Virus record (IMG/VR): IMGVR_UViG_3300020045_009164
Coordinates: 1-64,000 of that record
Reading direction: 5' to 3' (one strand)
DNA from: a virus
Taxonomy: Duplodnaviria > Caudoviricetes
Length of the DNA stretch: 64,000 nucleotides
Below the pieces are notes generated by a model that saw only the letters and a list, made by a program, of their open reading frames with translations, did no database searches and was not told the origin of the DNA. Below are positions 1 to 37,193 of the stretch, one piece after another. A program made the position numbers and the translations under genes. The stretch's first letter is position 1; every line of letters begins with the position of its first letter.

Positions 1-1
1 G

Positions 2-154
2 ATGAAAATGAGAGATTCAGATTGTGCAATAATAACTATTACTATTATTTGTGGTATATGCCTTTCTATTGGTACTTTGCAGTATTTGCCTACAAGACTA
101 TTTATTGCTGATTATATCGCCGCCCCATTGTACCATCTGTTATCAATGTTCTGA
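2..154 (+). CDS. small hydrophobic protein (50 aa; may start before the window)
   Basis: Hand-translated ORF MKMRDSDCAIITITIICGICLSIGTLQYL..., followed directly by a terminator. Confidence 0.4.
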   Translation: MKMRDSDCAIITITIICGICLSIGTLQYLPTRLFIADYIAAPLYHLLSMF

Positions 155-160
155 AATATG

Positions 161-196
161 AAATACCAGACGGACAAAATCCGTCTGGTATTTTGT
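161..196 (+). terminator. intrinsic terminator
   Basis: AAATACCAGACGGA-caaaa-TCCGTCTGGTATTT perfect 14 bp stem, then a T-rich tail. Confidence 0.85.
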
Positions 197-225
197 TGTT
201 TGGTATTTAAGTATTTCGTTAAATG

Positions 226-290
226 TTTTAATTAGACGTAATTAAAATATTCCTGACAAGCTAACTTATTTTAATTACCTGTAATTAAAA
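226..290. promoter_or_regulatory. two tandem palindromic operator-like sites TTTTAATTA-N4-TAATTAAAA
   Basis: 226-247 (spacer gacg) and 269-290 (spacer cctg). The same motif recurs at 529-548, 2478-2497 and 7357-7374. Confidence 0.65.
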
Positions 291-299
291 AGATTTTGG

Positions 300-527
300 C
301 GTACCAGCAAGCCATGGTCTGGTAAAATTCAACACAATGAGTTCGCCATTGAGGGATAGAGCGCACGTGCAATATGTTCGATTATTCGTGAAGGCCTGCT
401 GTAGTATCCTGGGAGATACAGGCAAGTTATGCGGATTTCCGAAACAGCAAAGAGCAAAACTTGAAAAGAGTTTTGCTCACTCTTCAGCATAGCTGCGCTT
501 AATAGTTGTGCTGAAGAGTGAGCAAAA
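300..527 (+). ncRNA. candidate structured non-coding RNA or leader
   Basis: ORF-free run of hairpins (TACCAG/CTGGTA, CAATG/CATTG, CACG/CGTG, GTATC/GATAC, GAGCAAAAC/GTTTTGCTC) ending in a 24 bp stem, 471-494/504-527. Confidence 0.4.
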
Positions 528-568
528 ATTAATTAGATCTAATTAAAACTTAATCCAGGGAGATTAAA

Positions 569-814
569 ATGGAAAGATACATGATCCAACAAATAATGTT
601 AGAAAACATGGCTAATCCGCAGTCAGCATTTAGAAAGAGAAACAGAAGGAAAGTAAAAGCCTTTAAAAATTCTTTGGTAGTAATAAATAGCTGGAATGTT
701 GAAAAATGTCAAGACTGGCTCGTCAAGAGGGAAAGACAGAATTTCTTGTTGTGGCATAAATACAGAAACAGCGTAGAAAATCGACTGGAAGAACTTGGTG
801 GCTGGTTATTTTAA
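569..814 (+). CDS. hypothetical protein
   Basis: ORF with GGGAG RBS; basic protein. Confidence 0.7.
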   Translation: MERYMIQQIMLENMANPQSAFRKRNRRKVKAFKNSLVVINSWNVEKCQDWLVKRERQNFLLWHKYRNSVENRLEELGGWLF

Positions 815-828
815 AGGAGGTTAAAATC

Positions 829-1182
829 ATGCAAGTAGTAATCTATAAAAACCGTGGGGCGATTGTCCCACGTCCTGAAGCGTTTGTCAAGGATCATCCA
901 GAGTGTGGTATGTTGTCTCTGGGTGATGTCCGTAGCATGGAAGTGTACCGTTTTGACTGTACCTTCCAAGGATTGCCCGCTGCTCAGTGGGCATGGTTCT
1001 GGCTTAAGAAGCATGATAACCGTGCTCGCAAATTTGGTACTTATGTTCCGGTGCCATATCTTGTCAAGGAGTCTGCAATAACTCCTAGGGCGTGTTTTAA
1101 AGCATTTAAGAAGAGTAAAAAACGCAGCAAGCCGACGCGCGTAAAAATGGTGTCGAGCCTTTACAATAGCTCGTTATTTTAA
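829..1182 (+). CDS. hypothetical protein
   Basis: AAGGAGG RBS; followed by a terminator. Confidence 0.8.
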   Translation: MQVVIYKNRGAIVPRPEAFVKDHPECGMLSLGDVRSMEVYRFDCTFQGLPAAQWAWFWLKKHDNRARKFGTYVPVPYLVKESAITPRACFKAFKKSKKRSKPTRVKMVSSLYNSSLF

Positions 1183-1183
1183 T

Positions 1184-1220
1184 AAAAGGCCCACTAGACT
1201 AACCTCTGGTGGGCCTTTTT
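1184..1220 (+). terminator. intrinsic terminator (possibly bidirectional)
   Basis: AAAAGGCCCACTAGA-ctaacc-TCTGGTGGGCCTTTT plus T. Confidence 0.85.
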
Positions 1221-1234
1221 GCGTTTAAGGGACT

Positions 1235-1417
1235 ATGAAAAATATAAATATTCAAGACCTTGGAATGGCTGGGAAGCGTTACCAGCTAGAGGTTAATGGC
1301 AGGATCATAAAAGAAGAGTTTAGAAGAGACGGTGTTATACCTTCATGGTGTGGCACCAAGAAGAAAGGGGGAGTAGCCAGCTGGAAGAATGGCTGGACTA
1401 CTTACGAGATAGACTAA
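1235..1417 (+). CDS. hypothetical protein
   Basis: ORF between two terminators; AGGGA RBS. Confidence 0.6.
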   Translation: MKNINIQDLGMAGKRYQLEVNGRIIKEEFRRDGVIPSWCGTKKKGGVASWKNGWTTYEID

Positions 1418-1444
1418 GCCAAACCAGCAATGGCTGGGCTTTTT
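1416..1444 (+). terminator. intrinsic terminator (bulged stem)
   Basis: CCAGC/GCTGG plus AAGC/GCTT stem, then a T run. Confidence 0.55.
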
Positions 1445-1606
1445 GCGTTTAAAAGCATGAAATTTTAACCCACAAAATGTGGAGAAAAGAACTTATAAAA
1501 CAATGGTTTACAAAGATTGGCTGAACAATCATTCATTTTTACAATTTTATAATATTTTGGGATAATTGTGTAAATTTTTTATTAATCTTAATGAGGAAGC
1601 CACAAA

Positions 1607-1705
1607 ATGGTTGTTTTATCTCCGGTGTACAGCAAACCAAGAAGATCCTTTAGAGTTTTGAAAGGATTGATTTTGATTCTCATTTGGGTTTTGGTTTTGA
1701 ATTGA
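1607..1705 (+). CDS. 32 aa basic/hydrophobic peptide, copy 1
   Basis: MVVLSPVYSKPRRSFRVLKGLILILIWVLVLN; GAGGA RBS; paralog at 2510-2608 of the same length with 7 synonymous differences. Confidence 0.65.
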   Translation: MVVLSPVYSKPRRSFRVLKGLILILIWVLVLN

Positions 1706-1764
1706 AATATGATTTGGATTCTCGTTTCACCCATAAGAATTTGTTCTTATGGGCCATTATTAAT

Positions 1765-2289
1765 TCAGTGCAAATCAATATACTGCTTTGCACTGGAACA
1801 GTCATCTGAAGGATAGAAACCTATACACTGCTCAGCAGCAAAACGAGCGCAGGCAGCGTCTAAAAGAGTATCAAAATTACCTATATGCTTAAGCTTCTTA
1901 TCTACAGTAATACTTGCATTCCACTTTGATGTTTTAGCAATAAATTTAACGCCTGTAACTCTGTGTTTGTTTTTTCTGAAAATAGTACGATTTCTAGATT
2001 GCTCTTGTGTGGTTGTCACCCTCAAATTACTATATCTATTATCATTTCTAACCCTATTTATGTGATCCACAGAGTATTTTGGCAAGTAACCATCCATATA
2101 TAGAATGGCTAATCTATGAGCCATACAATCCCCTCCCTGGTAGCTAATCTGAACATAGCCTCCAGCACTACTCCAACCAGCAGCCTCCCCAACTTTACTG
2201 CTACAATTACGGAAAGGCTCTATTCTAACAAATACTCCAGTATTAGGATCGTAACTGAATAACTCCTTCAATCTTTCTTGTGTTAGCAT
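1765..2289 (-). CDS. HNH homing endonuclease with AP2-like C-terminal domain
   Basis: AHRL...VDHINRVRNDNRYSNLR (HNH_3 pattern), then VTGV..W.A.I...KHIGNF (AP2-like). Confidence 0.9.
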   Translation of the reverse strand: MLTQERLKELFSYDPNTGVFVRIEPFRNCSSKVGEAAGWSSAGGYVQISYQGGDCMAHRLAILYMDGYLPKYSVDHINRVRNDNRYSNLRVTTTQEQSRNRTIFRKNKHRVTGVKFIAKTSKWNASITVDKKLKHIGNFDTLLDAACARFAAEQCIGFYPSDDCSSAKQYIDLH

Positions 2290-2438
2290 TTCTTAACCTC
2301 AAAGTCTTTTAAACCTTTAGCTACAAGATCATCTAGCACTTCAACCATAGACTTCTCTTCTTTAGCAGCAAGAAGCCTGAGGTTTTTTCTTGTACGCCGC
2401 CATATCCTAATGTTTGTGTACTCTGTCTCGTTTTTCAT
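2283..2438 (-). CDS. ribbon-helix-helix (CopG/Arc-like) DNA-binding protein, 51 aa
   Basis: MKNETEYTNIRIWRRTRKNLRLLAAKEEKSMVEVLDDLVAKGLKDFEVKKC; its stop overlaps the HNH start; TTGATT-17-TAATAT promoter ends 6 nt before the ATG. Confidence 0.75.
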   Translation of the reverse strand: MKNETEYTNIRIWRRTRKNLRLLAAKEEKSMVEVLDDLVAKGLKDFEVKKC

Positions 2439-2509
2439 GTTAACATATTACAACAAGGCTTAGTACAAATCAAGAAATTAATTAGATATAATTAAAAGGA
2501 GGCCCTAAA

Positions 2510-2608
2510 ATGGTTGTTTTGTCCCCAATGTACAGCAAGCCAAAAAGATCCTTTCGAGTTTTGAAGGGATTGTTTTTGATTCTCATCTGGGTTTCAATTT
2601 CGATTTGA
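2510..2608 (+). CDS. 32 aa basic/hydrophobic peptide, copy 2
   Basis: MVVLSPMYSKPKRSFRVLKGLFLILIWVSISI; AAGGAGG RBS. Confidence 0.7.
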   Translation: MVVLSPMYSKPKRSFRVLKGLFLILIWVSISI

Positions 2609-2821
2609 AATCTGATTTGGATTTAAAATTTAGCGAAGGTTAACTTAAGTATTTAACTAAATTCTTAAATACCTCCATAGAAAAAATTTTATACCACCCC
2701 CAAAATCAGCTCCATTATGAAAATTGTTGTTAGGAAACGCCAAAACAGCCCCTAGAATCAACGACAGACAACATCCATACCAACCTATACCTTGCACCAT
2801 GATCGTGCAACAGGAGGCCAA

Positions 2822-2968
2822 ATGAAGACCTTAAAGCAAGCGATCCACGCCTATTTAAACCGCAAGACAGAAACTCCAACCATAATCAGGAAGGTGACAA
2901 GATTCAGCAAGCCACCTCACCCCGAAAGATTACGCACCCATAGAAACCAAGGATACCCACTCATTTAA
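2822..2968 (+). CDS. small basic hypothetical protein (48 aa)
   Basis: AGGAGG RBS; MKTLKQAIHAYLNRK... Confidence 0.5.
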   Translation: MKTLKQAIHAYLNRKTETPTIIRKVTRFSKPPHPERLRTHRNQGYPLI

Positions 2969-3380
2969 CTATCTGCCTTAGCCTGTCATTCCAATCTGGT
3001 GGTGTTACCCAGTTAATACCATCAGATTTTCTAATCTGGAAATTATACTGGATCAACTTCAGAAAGAACTGTCCCTTCTTGAGCGGCGATATTCCGTTGT
3101 CTTCACAGTAGTCTAAATAAGACAGCCAAACTTGCGCCCGATTCACTTTAGTTTCTATTTGGGTGATAAATTGGTGGCTGTTACCCTCACTAGCTTCCCT
3201 CACGCCTTTCTCCACCTTTGCTGCTAGAGCAAATGCTCTTTCAGCAACAGAAAGGGCCAAAGAAGCTGATTTAGTGTTCGTTGCTTCCTTAGCTGCCTTC
3301 AAATATTTCTTCCCCAACTCCGAAGCATCAGCAATTACTCCATCGAGGCTCGGATCTAGCTCTAACAAATTATTTTCCAT
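2961..3380 (-). CDS. protein with a winged-helix domain resembling the primase-helicase C-terminus
   Basis: RAQVWLSYLDYCEDNGISPLKKGQFFLKL...IRKSDG aligns by eye to primase RADMWKRFQEFCVTGGYGDWKKGDFFADL...IKKSDG. Start chosen by a TAAGGA RBS. Confidence 0.7.
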   Translation of the reverse strand: MENNLLELDPSLDGVIADASELGKKYLKAAKEATNTKSASLALSVAERAFALAAKVEKGVREASEGNSHQFITQIETKVNRAQVWLSYLDYCEDNGISPLKKGQFFLKLIQYNFQIRKSDGINWVTPPDWNDRLRQIVK

Positions 3381-6824: not shown

Positions 6825-7343
6825 ATGCCACAGAGTATCACTCAGGATAGATTGAAAGAGTTGCTGGATTATGATGCAGAGACTGGAATTTTTACTTGGA
6901 AATCTAGCAGAAGTGGAACAAATGGAGCGGGATCAGAAGCAGGGGCAGTAGATAGCAAAGGTTATAGGCAGATAGCTATAAACGGCGTTCTCAGCTTAGC
7001 CCATAGGTTGGTATTCCTCTACATAGATGGTTATATGCCAGAAAACTCCGTTGACCACATAAACCGCAACAAGCTAGACAACAGAAGAGTAAATTTAAGA
7101 GAAGTGTCAAAACAATGCCAGATGAGAAACAGAGATGTTCGGAGAGACAACTCATCTAGTGTTACAGGGGTAGTATGGCATAAGCGCAGCTCAAGTTGGC
7201 GTGCCCGCATTGGTGTAAATGGGAAGCACAGGAATTTGGGTCACTTTACAGATCTCTTGGAAGCTGCCTACCACCGCTATGCAGGAGAGCAATGCTTAGG
7301 ATTTCCTGATTGTGACATAAATCCAGTGCTAAGAAATACATAG
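6825..7343 (+). CDS. HNH homing endonuclease with AP2-like domain (C-terminus probably frameshifted; alternative stop 7360)
   Basis: AHRL...VDHINRNKLDNRRVNLR; paralog of 1765-2289. The shifted frame after 7322 reads SSAKKYID, matching SSAKQYID in the paralog. Confidence 0.9.
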   Translation: MPQSITQDRLKELLDYDAETGIFTWKSSRSGTNGAGSEAGAVDSKGYRQIAINGVLSLAHRLVFLYIDGYMPENSVDHINRNKLDNRRVNLREVSKQCQMRNRDVRRDNSSSVTGVVWHKRSSSWRARIGVNGKHRNLGHFTDLLEAAYHRYAGEQCLGFPDCDINPVLRNT

Positions 7344-7375
7344 ATGCTAACAAGTCCTAATTAGAGGTAATTAGA

Positions 7376-7669
7376 ATGGAAACAGGAATCTAAAAAGCTC
7401 AAAGAATAAATCGAGAGCGGAGAGAGTCTGGAGAAGCAACCACAGTCACTCACAACTGGATTGTCAAGGCAAAGAGAAAACCAGCCAGCCTAAAGACAGC
7501 TATCAACGCCATGTGCTTTAGCTGTATGGGTGGGACAGAGGATGATATTACTGATCCTGGGTGGAAAGGTGAGATTAAAACCTGTACAGCAGTGGATTGT
7601 CCTTTGTATCCACATCGGCCATACAGAAAAGATGTATCTGAGGACGAGGAAGACAACGAGAGCGAGTAA
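7376..7669 (+). pseudogene. Cys-rich phage protein interrupted by TAA at codon 6
   Basis: ATG GAA ACA GGA ATC TAA AAA GCT... continues in frame to AINAMCFSCMGG...CTAVDCPLYPHRPY; RBS present; not in the ORF track. Confidence 0.6.
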
Positions 7670-27812: not shown

Positions 27813-27965
27813 ATGAGAACAAGATTAGTAGTAGAGTTAGAGTGCAAAAACTGCGGCAATCTCTGGGTTCCTATGGTCGATAACCCAAAGAAATGTCCAC
27901 AATGTCAAAGTAGAAAATGGAATGAGGAGAAAGATGAGCGCGACAAAAAACGAGGTAGGAAATAG
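27813..27965 (+). CDS. 50 aa zinc-ribbon protein
   Basis: MRTRLVVELECKNCGNLWVPMVDNPKKCPQCQSRKW...; GGAGG RBS; overlaps the HNH start. Confidence 0.75.
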   Translation: MRTRLVVELECKNCGNLWVPMVDNPKKCPQCQSRKWNEEKDERDKKRGRK

Positions 27966-28809
27966 GTATGGTAAATTAGTTGTGGTTGAGAGAGTGGAAA
28001 GTGATAGTAATTACGCCAAGTGGAGGTGCGAGTGTGACTGTGGTGGGGAGTACGTAACTACAGGTAACAGGTTAAGGACTGGAGATAATAATGTTAAATC
28101 TTGTTTAATGTGTAAAGCTGAGGATATAACAGGAAAAAGATTTAATAAGCTGCTGGTTATATGTAAAGTGGCCAGGAGAATGAAAGGTAAGAGCAGACAT
28201 AGAAAGTGGTTGTGTCTATGTAACTGTGGTGGAACTACTATAACAACAAGGCAGAATTTACGGGGTGGCCACACCAACTCCTGTGGTTGTTATGCTAAAA
28301 AGCGAGCGGCTGAAGCTAAAACATCTCACGGGATGTCAAGATTTTCCTTATTTCAAGTGTGGAGAAACATGAAATCCAGATGTGAAAATCCAGATAACCC
28401 CTGGTATGAGTTGTATTCTGCTAAAGGTCGTGAGGTTTGTGATAAGTGGAAACATAACCCTAAGGAATTTATAGATTGGGCCAATGTTAATGGCTGGAGC
28501 AGTAATTTGCAATTAGATAGGAGAGATAATTCACAAGGTTACTCCCCAGAAAACTGTAGGTTTGTAACACCGCAAGTGAATACACATAATTCAGATAGGC
28601 AGAGGAGAAACAAAACAGGGTATACTGGAGTTTGGTATGACAAAAGATATAGTACTTACATTAGTTACATAACAGGAATAGACGTACCCTTGTCTAGGAA
28701 GAGGAAACATCTAGGTAGTTTCTTCACTGCTGAACAAGCAGTTACCACTAGAAATAACTACATCAAGGAACATAACTTACCTCACCAAATACAGGAGATA
28801 AAAGGATGA
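27934..28809 (+). CDS. HNH-type homing endonuclease with N-terminal zinc-ribbon repeats and AP2-like C-terminus
   Basis: Two G..(F/Y).(K/R)L.V...W.C.C.CG units; SCGC; LQLDRRDNSQGYSPENCRF; KTGYTGV...HLGSF. Confidence 0.85.
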   Translation: MSATKNEVGNRYGKLVVVERVESDSNYAKWRCECDCGGEYVTTGNRLRTGDNNVKSCLMCKAEDITGKRFNKLLVICKVARRMKGKSRHRKWLCLCNCGGTTITTRQNLRGGHTNSCGCYAKKRAAEAKTSHGMSRFSLFQVWRNMKSRCENPDNPWYELYSAKGREVCDKWKHNPKEFIDWANVNGWSSNLQLDRRDNSQGYSPENCRFVTPQVNTHNSDRQRRNKTGYTGVWYDKRYSTYISYITGIDVPLSRKRKHLGSFFTAEQAVTTRNNYIKEHNLPHQIQEIKG

Positions 28810-32894: not shown

Positions 32895-33110
32895 ATGACC
32901 AAAAGTGTAAGAAGGTACGTCACTAGAGATGATTTAGAATTCAAGACCAAGGCTGAGGCTGATCAACATGAGAGGTACTTGACCTATGTCGAGTGGTATG
33001 AAGAACAAGGCTTCAAAGGTCCATCATTCTGTATCAGCTGGGAGGATTGGCTGGGGTGGATGAAAGAGCATAAAGAGATGATAATGAAAATTATGGAGGA
33101 GTGCGTATGA
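32895..33110 (+). CDS. hypothetical protein
   Basis: AGGAGG RBS. Confidence 0.8.
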   Translation: MTKSVRRYVTRDDLEFKTKAEADQHERYLTYVEWYEEQGFKGPSFCISWEDWLGWMKEHKEMIMKIMEECV

Positions 33111-33520
33111 AGAACAGCGGAAAGTATCTCGAGGAAGCAATTGAGTCTGAGTTGAAAAAGAATACAGACACAAGTCGTCATTGGAGGCGACTTCATGATG
33201 GCAGGGCTGCTAAAAATTACATCCCAGCCCAACCAGCGGACTTCTTCCTATGTATTGCTGGGGGGGCAGTTTATTTGGAAAGCAAATCTCAGAAGGGTAA
33301 GACCAGGAGACTCAACAAGTTTTCCCAGCTCCCTGTGATGCAGAGGTGGAGTTCAGCTGGTGTAAAAGGGGCAGTGGTTGTCCACTTCCACGAATTGGAG
33401 GAGTTGTTTATGGTGGATGTGGATTGGTTTGATCCAAGTAAACCTTCGTGGGTTTTGAGTGAGGAGTTTATTATTGAGAGCCTTGAGGATGGGTTGGAGA
33501 AATTGGGGTGGAGGTCTTAA
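33107..33520 (+). CDS. Holliday junction resolvase (RecU/Hjc-like PD-(D/E)xK)
   Basis: GKYLE...PADF...YLESKS. Confidence 0.75.
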   Translation: MKNSGKYLEEAIESELKKNTDTSRHWRRLHDGRAAKNYIPAQPADFFLCIAGGAVYLESKSQKGKTRRLNKFSQLPVMQRWSSAGVKGAVVVHFHELEELFMVDVDWFDPSKPSWVLSEEFIIESLEDGLEKLGWRS

Positions 33521-34503
33521 TGAAATACCTTGTTCTGTCAGATTTACATTTTGCTCCAGATCGTAGAGCTGGCTGTAGTCAGGCCAGTAGGCTCTCCCTT
33601 GAAGACTACTTGTTTGATAGACTTAATCACATTCTCCAGACAGTTGAACATGACAAGGTTATTATTGCTGGAGATATATTTGATAAATTCTCAGTATCTG
33701 AGAAGACGCTTCTGAACACCTACCTAGCCCTTAGGGGTGAGAAGGCTATAATACTGCGAGGGAATCATGACGCCAACTCTGCTGTTAGAGTTGGCGAGAT
33801 ATCTAGCTTAGAACTCCTTGGAGCTTTGCTGCCAGAAACCCACTTGGTATTCAACGAACCGGAGACAGTCGATGGTATGCACTTCATCCCACACTGCTTT
33901 GACCAGACTCAACTTAATCAGTATGTAGATGAAATACCTGACAATGTTGTATGTTTCTTACATTGTAATTTTGACAACTCATTCACTGAACACGCCGACC
34001 ACAGCCTTAACATCACCAGTCAGCAATACCAGAAGCTGAAAGAGAGCAATGTTTTCTTGATACTTGGACACGAACACCAAGCCAGAGATCTGGAAAACCT
34101 ATACATCCTGGGGTGTACTTACCCCACCTCCATCAGCGATTGTCTTGGTGGATCAAAGCGCTGTCTCCTCTACGACTCAGAGGCCAAAACCTTTGAATCA
34201 ATAGAAACCTTCAACAAGGAAGCAGAGTACATTGAGCTACATTGGTCAGACACCAGACTTACTGATCACAAGTTTGTGAGGGTAGTAGGTGACTGTTCCG
34301 TAGTTGAATATCCCCAGATAGTTCGTTCTATTGCTCAGTTGCGGAAGACCAGTGATGCCTTCATCATAGCGAATGCTGTCAAGGTCCAGACGCCCGAGAG
34401 GGAGGAGATTGAAAAGCAGGAAGTCACAGGATTTAACATACTGTCACTTCTACTGGAGAATGTGGATGAGGAGTTCAGGGGGGAGGTAAAATTGTGTATA
34501 TAG
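33520..34503 (+). CDS. SbcD/Mre11-like metallophosphoesterase nuclease
   Basis: SDLH, AGDIFD, GNHD and GHEH; adjacent to an SMC-like ATPase. Confidence 0.88.
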   Translation: MKYLVLSDLHFAPDRRAGCSQASRLSLEDYLFDRLNHILQTVEHDKVIIAGDIFDKFSVSEKTLLNTYLALRGEKAIILRGNHDANSAVRVGEISSLELLGALLPETHLVFNEPETVDGMHFIPHCFDQTQLNQYVDEIPDNVVCFLHCNFDNSFTEHADHSLNITSQQYQKLKESNVFLILGHEHQARDLENLYILGCTYPTSISDCLGGSKRCLLYDSEAKTFESIETFNKEAEYIELHWSDTRLTDHKFVRVVGDCSVVEYPQIVRSIAQLRKTSDAFIIANAVKVQTPEREEIEKQEVTGFNILSLLLENVDEEFRGEVKLCI

Positions 34504-37022: not shown

Positions 37023-37193
37023 ATGCGCATGAGAAAAAAGAATACTTATTTTTCAATTATACAGTTGAAGCTACTGGAGGGGTTAGCGGAGGTCACTGGT
37101 ATCACAGTTGCTGAACACATACGCAGGGCTGTTGACCTGTATTTAAAGGAACAGAATGTATCTATCTCACAAAATAGAACTAAGACCTACTAA
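37023..37193 (+). CDS. ribbon-helix-helix DNA-binding protein, 56 aa
   Basis: MRMRKKNTYFSIIQLKLLEGLAEVTGITVAEHIRRAVDLYL...; overlaps the tnpB start by 38 nt. Confidence 0.8.
   Translation: MRMRKKNTYFSIIQLKLLEGLAEVTGITVAEHIRRAVDLYLKEQNVSISQNRTKTY

Follow-up and report, generated by a model that had tools for sequence, protein, structure and literature searches.

The window analysed here is a stretch of 64,000 nt from an uncultured groundwater phage, namely positions 1 to 64,000 of an IMG/VR contig of 74.7 kb (record IMGVR_UViG_3300020045_009164; completeness estimate, 58%). Positions 1-3000 form an early region of very small genes on the plus strand, many of which are preceded by a recurrent palindrome, TTAATTAGAnnTAATTAAAA (11 matches on both strands versus 0.09 expected). 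Copies of this motif, referred to below as the operator palindrome (TTAATTA..TAATTAA), are located at 228, 271, 529, 2478, and 7357, as well as throughout related phages. In this region, two open reading frames (ORFs) of 32 codons each, hereafter the micro-ORFs, lie on either side of a minus-strand cassette that carries an HNH endonuclease gene and a gene encoding a 51-aa protein (Table 1).

Table 1. Features of the micro-ORF locus in the window and equivalent micro-ORFs in related loci
Feature	Position	Strand	Basis
Sigma-70-like promoter, TTTACA-17-GATAAT, extended -10 TG	1538..1566	+	Consensus scan, 10/12 plus TG; function inferred
Left repeat: degenerate palindrome, Shine-Dalgarno site, 32-codon ORF, conserved 15-nt tail	1572..1720	+	Repeat search, alignment
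Micro-ORF copy 1, 32 aa; N-terminal half basic, C-terminal 12-mer hydrophobic	1607..1705	+	
Hairpin with a perfect 10-bp stem, flanked by the copy-1 ORF and the HNH gene, which converge on it	1730..1753	both	Folding
HNH endonuclease gene, free-standing, 174 aa, own GAGG Shine-Dalgarno site	1765..2289	-	Pfam, PHROG
Gene for 51-aa RHH-like protein, no Shine-Dalgarno site	2283..2438	-	Pfam (sub-threshold), AF2, Foldseek
Weak promoter-like site, TTGATT-17-TAATAT, 8/12, at right edge of insert	2445..2473	-	Read from sequence, below scan threshold; inferred
Right repeat: intact operator palindrome (2478-2497), Shine-Dalgarno site, 32-codon ORF, 15-nt tail	2475..2623	+	
Micro-ORF copy 2, 32 aa	2510..2608	+	
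Conserved 48-aa gene anchoring the slot; 57-71% identity across relatives	2822..2968	+	tblastn
Micro-ORF of relative L021	L021:1724-1804		
Micro-ORF of relative L017	L017:3885-3965		
Micro-ORF of relative L024	L024:1221-1301		
Micro-ORF of relative L023	L023:3227-3289		
Micro-ORF of relative L018	L018:959-1024		
Micro-ORF of relative L016	L016:5628-5759		
Micro-ORF of relative L012	L012:11319-11411	-	

Each micro-ORF was found within one copy of a 149-nt direct repeat, present only twice in the 74.7-kb record. The two copies are 80.5% identical (29 differences) and abut the unique insert between them, 1721-2474, exactly, with zero spacer on either side. Both exhibit a Shine-Dalgarno site (GAGGA at 1593-1597 in copy 1 and GGAGG at 2498-2502 in copy 2) located 7-9 nt 5' of the ATG, an in-frame stop just 5' of the ATG, 32 codons, and a TGA. 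The original prediction, made from the sequence alone, had described twin 32-codon ORFs with ribosome-binding sites, 25 of 32 residues identical, and a nucleotide similarity continuing for about 15 nt beyond both TGA codons; all of these features were confirmed. By segment, identity amounted to 57% in the first 21 nt, 71% at the ribosome site, 88% in codons 1-28, 67% in the last four codons and the stop, and 93% (14/15) in the 15 nt 3' of the stop. An assembly artefact is unlikely: the junctions are clean, and an assembler would not be misled by copies that share only 80% identity.

A recount of the differences in codons 1-28 gave seven synonymous and three conservative changes, as previously claimed. 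According to the Nei-Gojobori method, these correspond to 7 synonymous changes over 18.8 sites and 3 non-synonymous changes over 65.2 sites, i.e., a ratio of non-synonymous to synonymous proportions (pN/pS) of 0.12 for the plus frame. The caveat attached to that claim, namely that one antisense frame shares third positions and is also conserved, was equally borne out, since this frame is also open, with a pN/pS of 0.19 versus 0.12. The remaining four frames are interrupted by stops. The antisense ORFs have no Shine-Dalgarno site; the plus-frame ORFs have ribosome sites.

Neither the 32-aa peptide nor the repeat had a homologue among 50,697 phage records searched with tblastn and blastn, and a degenerate DNA pattern found nothing in IMG/VR or in JGI metagenome contigs. 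The peptides were unmatched in Pfam and gave no usable match in the ESM Atlas, and a peptide profile run against 1.84 billion protein representatives found no true homologue; its sole match was a translated tandem repeat and not a relative.

These results bear on a non-coding reading of the repeat, in which it would act as DNA or RNA, for example as an operator-plus-leader module, as a target sequence for recombination or homing, or as a weak attenuator hairpin with a T-rich run behind it, with the ORFs being incidental. This reading, which we consider improbable, could accommodate the absence of a protein homologue, the equally open complementary frame, a terminator-like hairpin in copy 2 (2547-2571, followed by GTTTTTGATT; a weaker counterpart occurs in copy 1), and the 15 nt 3' of the stop, whose identity exceeds that of the synonymous sites. 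It is less easily reconciled with the clustering of changes at third codon positions of the very frame that is led by a Shine-Dalgarno site and an ATG. Furthermore, the repeat as RNA folded no better than shuffled sequences (z = +0.74 and -1.27), Rfam gave no match to it, and two substitutions in the stem of the internal hairpin are non-compensatory, yet both are synonymous. Related phages also keep a micro-ORF of clearly translated type at the same position, as described below.

Both peptides have a net charge of +5, and their best 12-residue Kyte-Doolittle window reaches 3.3 (copy 1) or 2.8 (copy 2), in a hydrophobic run of only 12-13 residues. It is plausible that the peptides are real and membrane-directed. 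In copy 1, the hydrophobic tail is underlain by a weak TTGATT periodicity (Tandem Repeats Finder; 5.7 units at 1667-1700, score 33), so that the earlier statement that both tails arise from a degenerate 6-bp repeat is supported for copy 1 only. Read-through or recoding of the TGA, which would extend the hydrophobic tail, was considered and dropped, TGA being the commonest ordinary stop (47 out of 95 ORFs).

To describe the locus in related phages, we collected primase homologues (42-76% identity); an alignment of the conserved neighbouring 117-aa protein yielded nine metagenome loci and one IMG/VR locus, to which locus L010 was added. The 117-aa gene, the 48-aa gene, a winged-helix gene, and the primase gene were syntenic in all loci recovered with the 117-aa protein. 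The HNH gene, the 51-aa gene, and the 149-nt repeat were missing from the syntenic region of every one of them. Although the interval that separates the 117-aa gene from the 48-aa gene is hypervariable, a single micro-ORF encoding a hydrophobic peptide closes it in each of the nine relatives that span it, 55-60 nt 5' of the 48-aa gene; none has two. These micro-ORFs are 20, 21, 26, or 43 aa long and encode five distinct peptide sequences, most of which end in LAYLIVGFIETL. A Shine-Dalgarno site (AAAGGAG) precedes the micro-ORF in seven loci; L018 has only a GAGG there, within the operator palindrome, and in L016 and L025 (and the L010 equivalent) the start of the micro-ORF overlaps the stop of the upstream gene as ATGA. 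The operator palindrome lies just 5' of the micro-ORF in four aligned loci, and directly 5' of it in L018. Nearly all differences among them are synonymous; between L021 and L023, for instance, 14 codons of the micro-ORF differ by seven synonymous changes and one non-synonymous change. The relatives' micro-ORFs are under strong purifying selection and represent real, unannotated micro-protein genes. The gene calls on the relatives' contigs miss them. We also observed that the N-terminal part of the relatives' micro-proteins derives from a 9-bp repeat encoding Ile-Pro-Ile units, in variable copy number.

The nearest relative is of the type represented by L010, L016, and L025 (76% primase identity) and encodes the 43-aa micro-peptide. 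This peptide starts with MIVISPSYKR, compared with MVVLSPVYSK in the window (pairwise BLASTP, E = 0.003), and hhalign aligned residues 1-10 only, i.e., the same ten. This N-terminal motif is common to the window peptides and the nearest relative's peptide alone. The latter has an aliphatic-aromatic-aliphatic tail resembling both the window peptides and those of the other relatives. In the nearest relative, the antisense frame that shares third positions contains a stop.

No LAYLIVGFIETL motif was found in the six frames of the window or of L028, and an IMG/VR pattern scan for this C-terminal motif found none either. The spacer at 2609-2760 was examined as a possible decayed remnant of the relatives' micro-ORF, a candidate that was dropped because local alignments were no better than those of shuffled sequences. 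With neither a LAYLIVGFIETL-type ORF in the window nor a remnant in the spacer, copy 2 occupies the slot that the single micro-ORF holds in the relatives. Its regulatory context is indeed theirs, with the operator palindrome and ribosome site on the 5' side and the 48-aa gene on the 3' side.

The insert itself is a 754-nt minus-strand unit comprising, in order, the promoter-like site, the 51-aa gene, the overlapping HNH gene, and the hairpin. Its gene content is limited to the two genes, with no transposase or integrase. The HNH ATG lies within the last codons of the upstream 51-aa ORF. The ATG of the latter is only 6 nt 3' of the -10-like TAATAT, so that its mRNA may be leaderless. The HNH domain was recognised by Pfam (HNH_3, PF13392; E = 9e-13; residues 56-99), and the protein matched PHROG 99, "HNH endonuclease" (E = 8e-55). 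It has 170 homologues, many of which match AP2 as well; the nearest are about 50% identical and come from unrelated phage contexts in the same groundwater metagenomes. By its sequence, the protein is a putative homing endonuclease.

The hairpin between the HNH gene and copy 1 has a folding free energy of -13.0 kcal/mol on the plus strand and -15.4 kcal/mol on the minus strand (z about -4.7 and -4.9, respectively), and none of 200 shuffled sequences was as stable. Because a U-tract is lacking on the minus strand, it does not qualify as a canonical intrinsic terminator of HNH transcription; its probable role is to define the 3' end of one or both transcripts, or to stabilise them. The earlier statement that no terminator can be seen in the interval from the HNH stop to copy 1 must consequently be corrected, even though the structure present there is non-canonical.

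This arrangement is relevant to the proposal that the peptides are type I-toxin-like agents of addiction or superinfection exclusion, i.e., membrane toxins whose translation is kept in check by antisense transcripts of the RHH-HNH unit. Copy 1 would be covered by transcripts that run on past the hairpin, and copy 2 by those from a promoter within or beyond that copy; if true, retention of the nuclease cassette would be tied to control of the peptides. The peptides are indeed small, basic, and hydrophobic, and in size and composition they resemble Hok, Ldr, TisB, Ibs, and Fst. The cassette is convergent to copy 1 and divergent to copy 2, so that transcripts could overlap; the hairpin lacks the minus-strand U-tract, and a minus-strand promoter-like site lies inside copy 2 (2597-2569). 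However, this site is lost in copy 1 (-35 CAAAAC), where the -15 kcal/mol hairpin also separates the HNH gene from the micro-ORF. A discrete antisense RNA gene is absent, the repeat as RNA folds no better than shuffled sequences, and none of the known toxin families was matched in Pfam, among the 1.84 billion representatives, or in the ESM Atlas. A basic N-terminus followed by a hydrophobic tail is the reverse of the layout of most type I toxins, and the hydrophobic stretch of the window peptides is short in comparison. Finally, HNH-less relatives retain the slot micro-ORF with no antisense partner, which is more in keeping with an ordinary phage gene than with a toxin linked to the cassette. 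The toxin proposal gained no specific support, and we regard it as very unlikely.

The reading that we favour, with moderate confidence, is that the 32-codon ORFs are real paralogous genes for tail-anchored membrane peptides, duplicated when the nuclease cassette inserted. Duplication of a target gene upon insertion was among the possibilities originally raised, and it is the one to which the cassette-free relatives, their single slot micro-ORF, and the repeats lying flush with the cassette edges all point. According to this model, the micro-genes would belong to an early-gene "micro-protein slot" upstream of the conserved 48-aa gene. A self-contained, selfish 754-nt unit, in which a weak promoter and a hairpin enclose the genes for an RHH-like regulator of 51 aa and a homing endonuclease of the HNH/AP2 type, would have inserted in antisense orientation just 5' of the slot operator. 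This insertion, or the recombination that delivered the cassette, would have duplicated a 149-nt expression module made up of the operator, ribosome site, ORF, and 15-nt tail, leaving an intact micro-gene on each side. Copy 2 would have retained its native operator and downstream neighbour. In copy 1 the operator would have decayed, with expression depending on a host-type promoter and ending at the hairpin; from the promoter-like site upstream, its mRNA would start near 1573. On this model, both peptides would be translated and targeted to the membrane, and duplication would have accompanied insertion. Our guess is that the peptide acts early on a component of the host inner membrane.

Several points weigh against this interpretation. 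The 32-aa type consists of two copies and had no homologue in any of the databases searched, and the case for coding is made by ten substitutions and a ten-residue similarity to one relative; the complementary frame carries the same signal. A hydrophobic stretch of 12-13 residues is short for a membrane span, and that of copy 2 is shorter still, with a Ser-Ile-Ser-Ile tail. The copies differ by a pS of 0.37, meaning that the event is old or that the copies come from two lineages (donor and recipient alleles). If the latter, the selection signal would reflect orthologous divergence and would be no proof that both copies still function. With regard to the HNH-less, single-copy allele that the original prediction had proposed to look for, the relatives have one module of operator, ribosome site, and micro-ORF in the slot, but at the nucleotide level none of these loci aligns to the repeat. 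The relatives are recognisably similar to it only in the operator and in the ten-residue N-terminal motif of the nearest one, so that no alignable empty site was found among them and duplication at insertion has to be deduced. The model also offers no explanation for the 15 nt 3' of the stop being more conserved than the synonymous sites. The rival readings leave this stretch equally unexplained; it could be a point where recombination joined two sequences, or a site that a nuclease recognises.

The age of the duplication is also compatible with another order of events, in which tandem paralogues predate the cassette. They would have arisen, for example, by unequal recombination between operator palindromes, similar to that mediated by PeSL, and the HNH gene would have landed later in the spacer between two real peptide genes. 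The repeat unit starts at the operator palindrome, itself recurrent in the window and in relatives, and synonymous divergence of about 0.4-0.5 points to an old duplication. Moreover, the paralogous HNH gene at 6826-7343 lies directly 5' of an operator copy with no flanking duplication, and PeSL-mediated shuffling is documented (PMC2839356, PMC4122927). Nevertheless, the insert would have had to hit the junction between the two units exactly, leaving no spacer, and two copies were present in none of the nine slot-spanning relatives. We consider this order unlikely.

Comparison with known systems gave partial parallels. Free-standing HNH homing genes, such as T4 MobA-E and Seg, or those engaged in "intronless homing", are similar in that they are small HNH_3 genes with AP2-type relatives, occupy intergenic positions among early genes, are present in one phage and absent from its relatives, and have paralogues in the same genome. 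The occurrence of the nearest homologues of the window HNH gene in unrelated phage contexts is a further likeness. Unlike these genes, the window cassette is accompanied by a 149-nt duplication of a whole gene, includes an RHH-like gene in its operon, and has the opposite orientation. "Insertion with long target duplication" has been described for restriction-modification gene units (Furuta et al. 2010, PMC2853133), which likewise represent nuclease units with no transposase or integrase, bounded by direct repeats far exceeding transposon target duplications. At 149 nt, the window repeats are longer than 30 bp, the lower bound for such direct repeats. In the restriction-modification cases, however, the repeats are near-identical and an empty site aligns, whereas the window repeats are 80% identical and the divergence of the "empty" relatives limits alignment to the operator and the ten-residue motif. 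PeSL promoter-terminator cassettes, which mediate modular shuffling in T4-type phages (PMC2839356, PMC4122927), resemble the operator palindrome in being short, recurrent regulatory motifs before small early genes in a hypervariable region, and the left boundary of the duplicated unit lies at the palindrome. PeSL cassettes differ from it in motif and in phage group.

If duplication at insertion is correct, insertion of a homing endonuclease gene can duplicate a complete gene and not just a few bases, and selfish nucleases would have a simple route to making paralogues of very small phage genes. The relatives further suggest a family of hydrophobic peptides of 20-43 aa, constant in its position within the early region across a group of groundwater phages, which has been missed by gene callers and is absent from databases. 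These findings refine current views and overturn none.

The 51-aa protein of the cassette had been labelled RHH in the original prediction, and this label is weakly supported. The Pfam match to Antitox_RHH was below threshold (E = 0.07). The AF2 model, obtained from the single sequence, showed two helices and no strand (pLDDT 87), and the top Foldseek matches to it (ParG, AmrZ, MazE, Arc, and PutA) were mostly RHH proteins, all with E > 2. A word-based search with the protein returned only a self-match. Its only homologue was identified in G001, an 81-kb relative that has no HNH_3 gene anywhere (44% identity over 39 residues; pairwise E = 7e-10). There, the homologue lies immediately 5' of an HNH gene of a different family (PHROG 374, E = 3e-70), at a site between genes that are adjacent or overlapping in the window (33101-33520 and 33508-34503). 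Two related phages thus pair the same small protein with HNH genes that are unrelated and inserted at different sites, and these two independent pairings hint at a shared regulator of such nucleases. A speculative extension, to which we give very little weight, is that the cassette carries its own membrane micro-protein gene, with copy 1, equipped with its host-type promoter and hairpin, as cargo benefiting carriers and the RHH-like partner as a shared control element. The advantage could come, for example, from excluding cassette-less competitor phages or from making loss of the cassette costly; if true, this would be a nuclease-plus-peptide mobile module of an undescribed kind.

In G001, the homologue and its HNH gene (L029:625-1671, minus strand; about 51.3-52.3 kb of G001) are part of an inserted block of about 1.9 kb with six small genes. 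The PHROG 374 HNH gene appears to be split into ORFs of 63 and 255 aa, each with a FGxLxV...WLCxCDCG repeat. In the window, we also identified a gene at 37023-37193 encoding a 56-aa RHH_3/RHH_1 protein (Pfam, E = 4e-5), which overlaps the start of TnpB and is a second small RHH gene directly 5' of a selfish nuclease in this phage. No relationship between its product and the 51-aa protein was detectable in sequence.

Other HNH genes were found in the same record. An HNH_3/AP2 paralogue, 47% identical to that of the cassette, is located at 6826-7343, and another HNH_3 gene near 73.3 kb. The former lies in a divergent intergenic region upstream of the HTH-primase operon, is absent from L010, and ends immediately to the left of the operator palindrome at 7357-7376, as does the cassette with respect to its own palindrome; the palindrome or its flank may be a preferred landing site. 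A fourth HNH-type gene, at 27922-28809, encodes a 295-aa protein of the PHROG 374 type, 38% identical to the G001 nuclease, and lies directly upstream of the DNA polymerase gene, whose start it overlaps. No flanking duplications were found at the 6826-7343 gene, at the gene near 73.3 kb, at the HNH homologues of L003 and L006, or at the G001 cassette.

The phage is a large tailed one, encoding a tape-measure protein, a DNA polymerase, two ligases, SbcCD, and TnpB. Its DNA polymerase is at most 29% identical to that of any cultured phage, and megablast of the first 6.6 kb against phages gave no match. Searches for closer relatives among GTDB genome contigs, and in IMG/VR with either the 117-aa protein or the primase as a single query, found nothing.

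Finally, two further sequence elements were observed in the early regions. A GC-rich element, ACTGAGCGCTC(G/A)CTCAATTTT, is conserved in one or two copies 5' of the operator of the relatives' micro-ORF (L021:1590-1650, L024:1090-1150, L016:5660-5680, the latter within the 43-aa ORF, and L010:12150-12180). It is absent from the window, where the nuclease cassette stands at that position. A second recurrent motif, TATTTAAGTATTT...TAAAT, was matched four times versus 0.11 expected (window positions 204-224 and 2642-2671, among others). The copy located 3' of micro-ORF copy 2 is itself palindromic, and similar stretches were detected by blastn in the early regions of the relatives.

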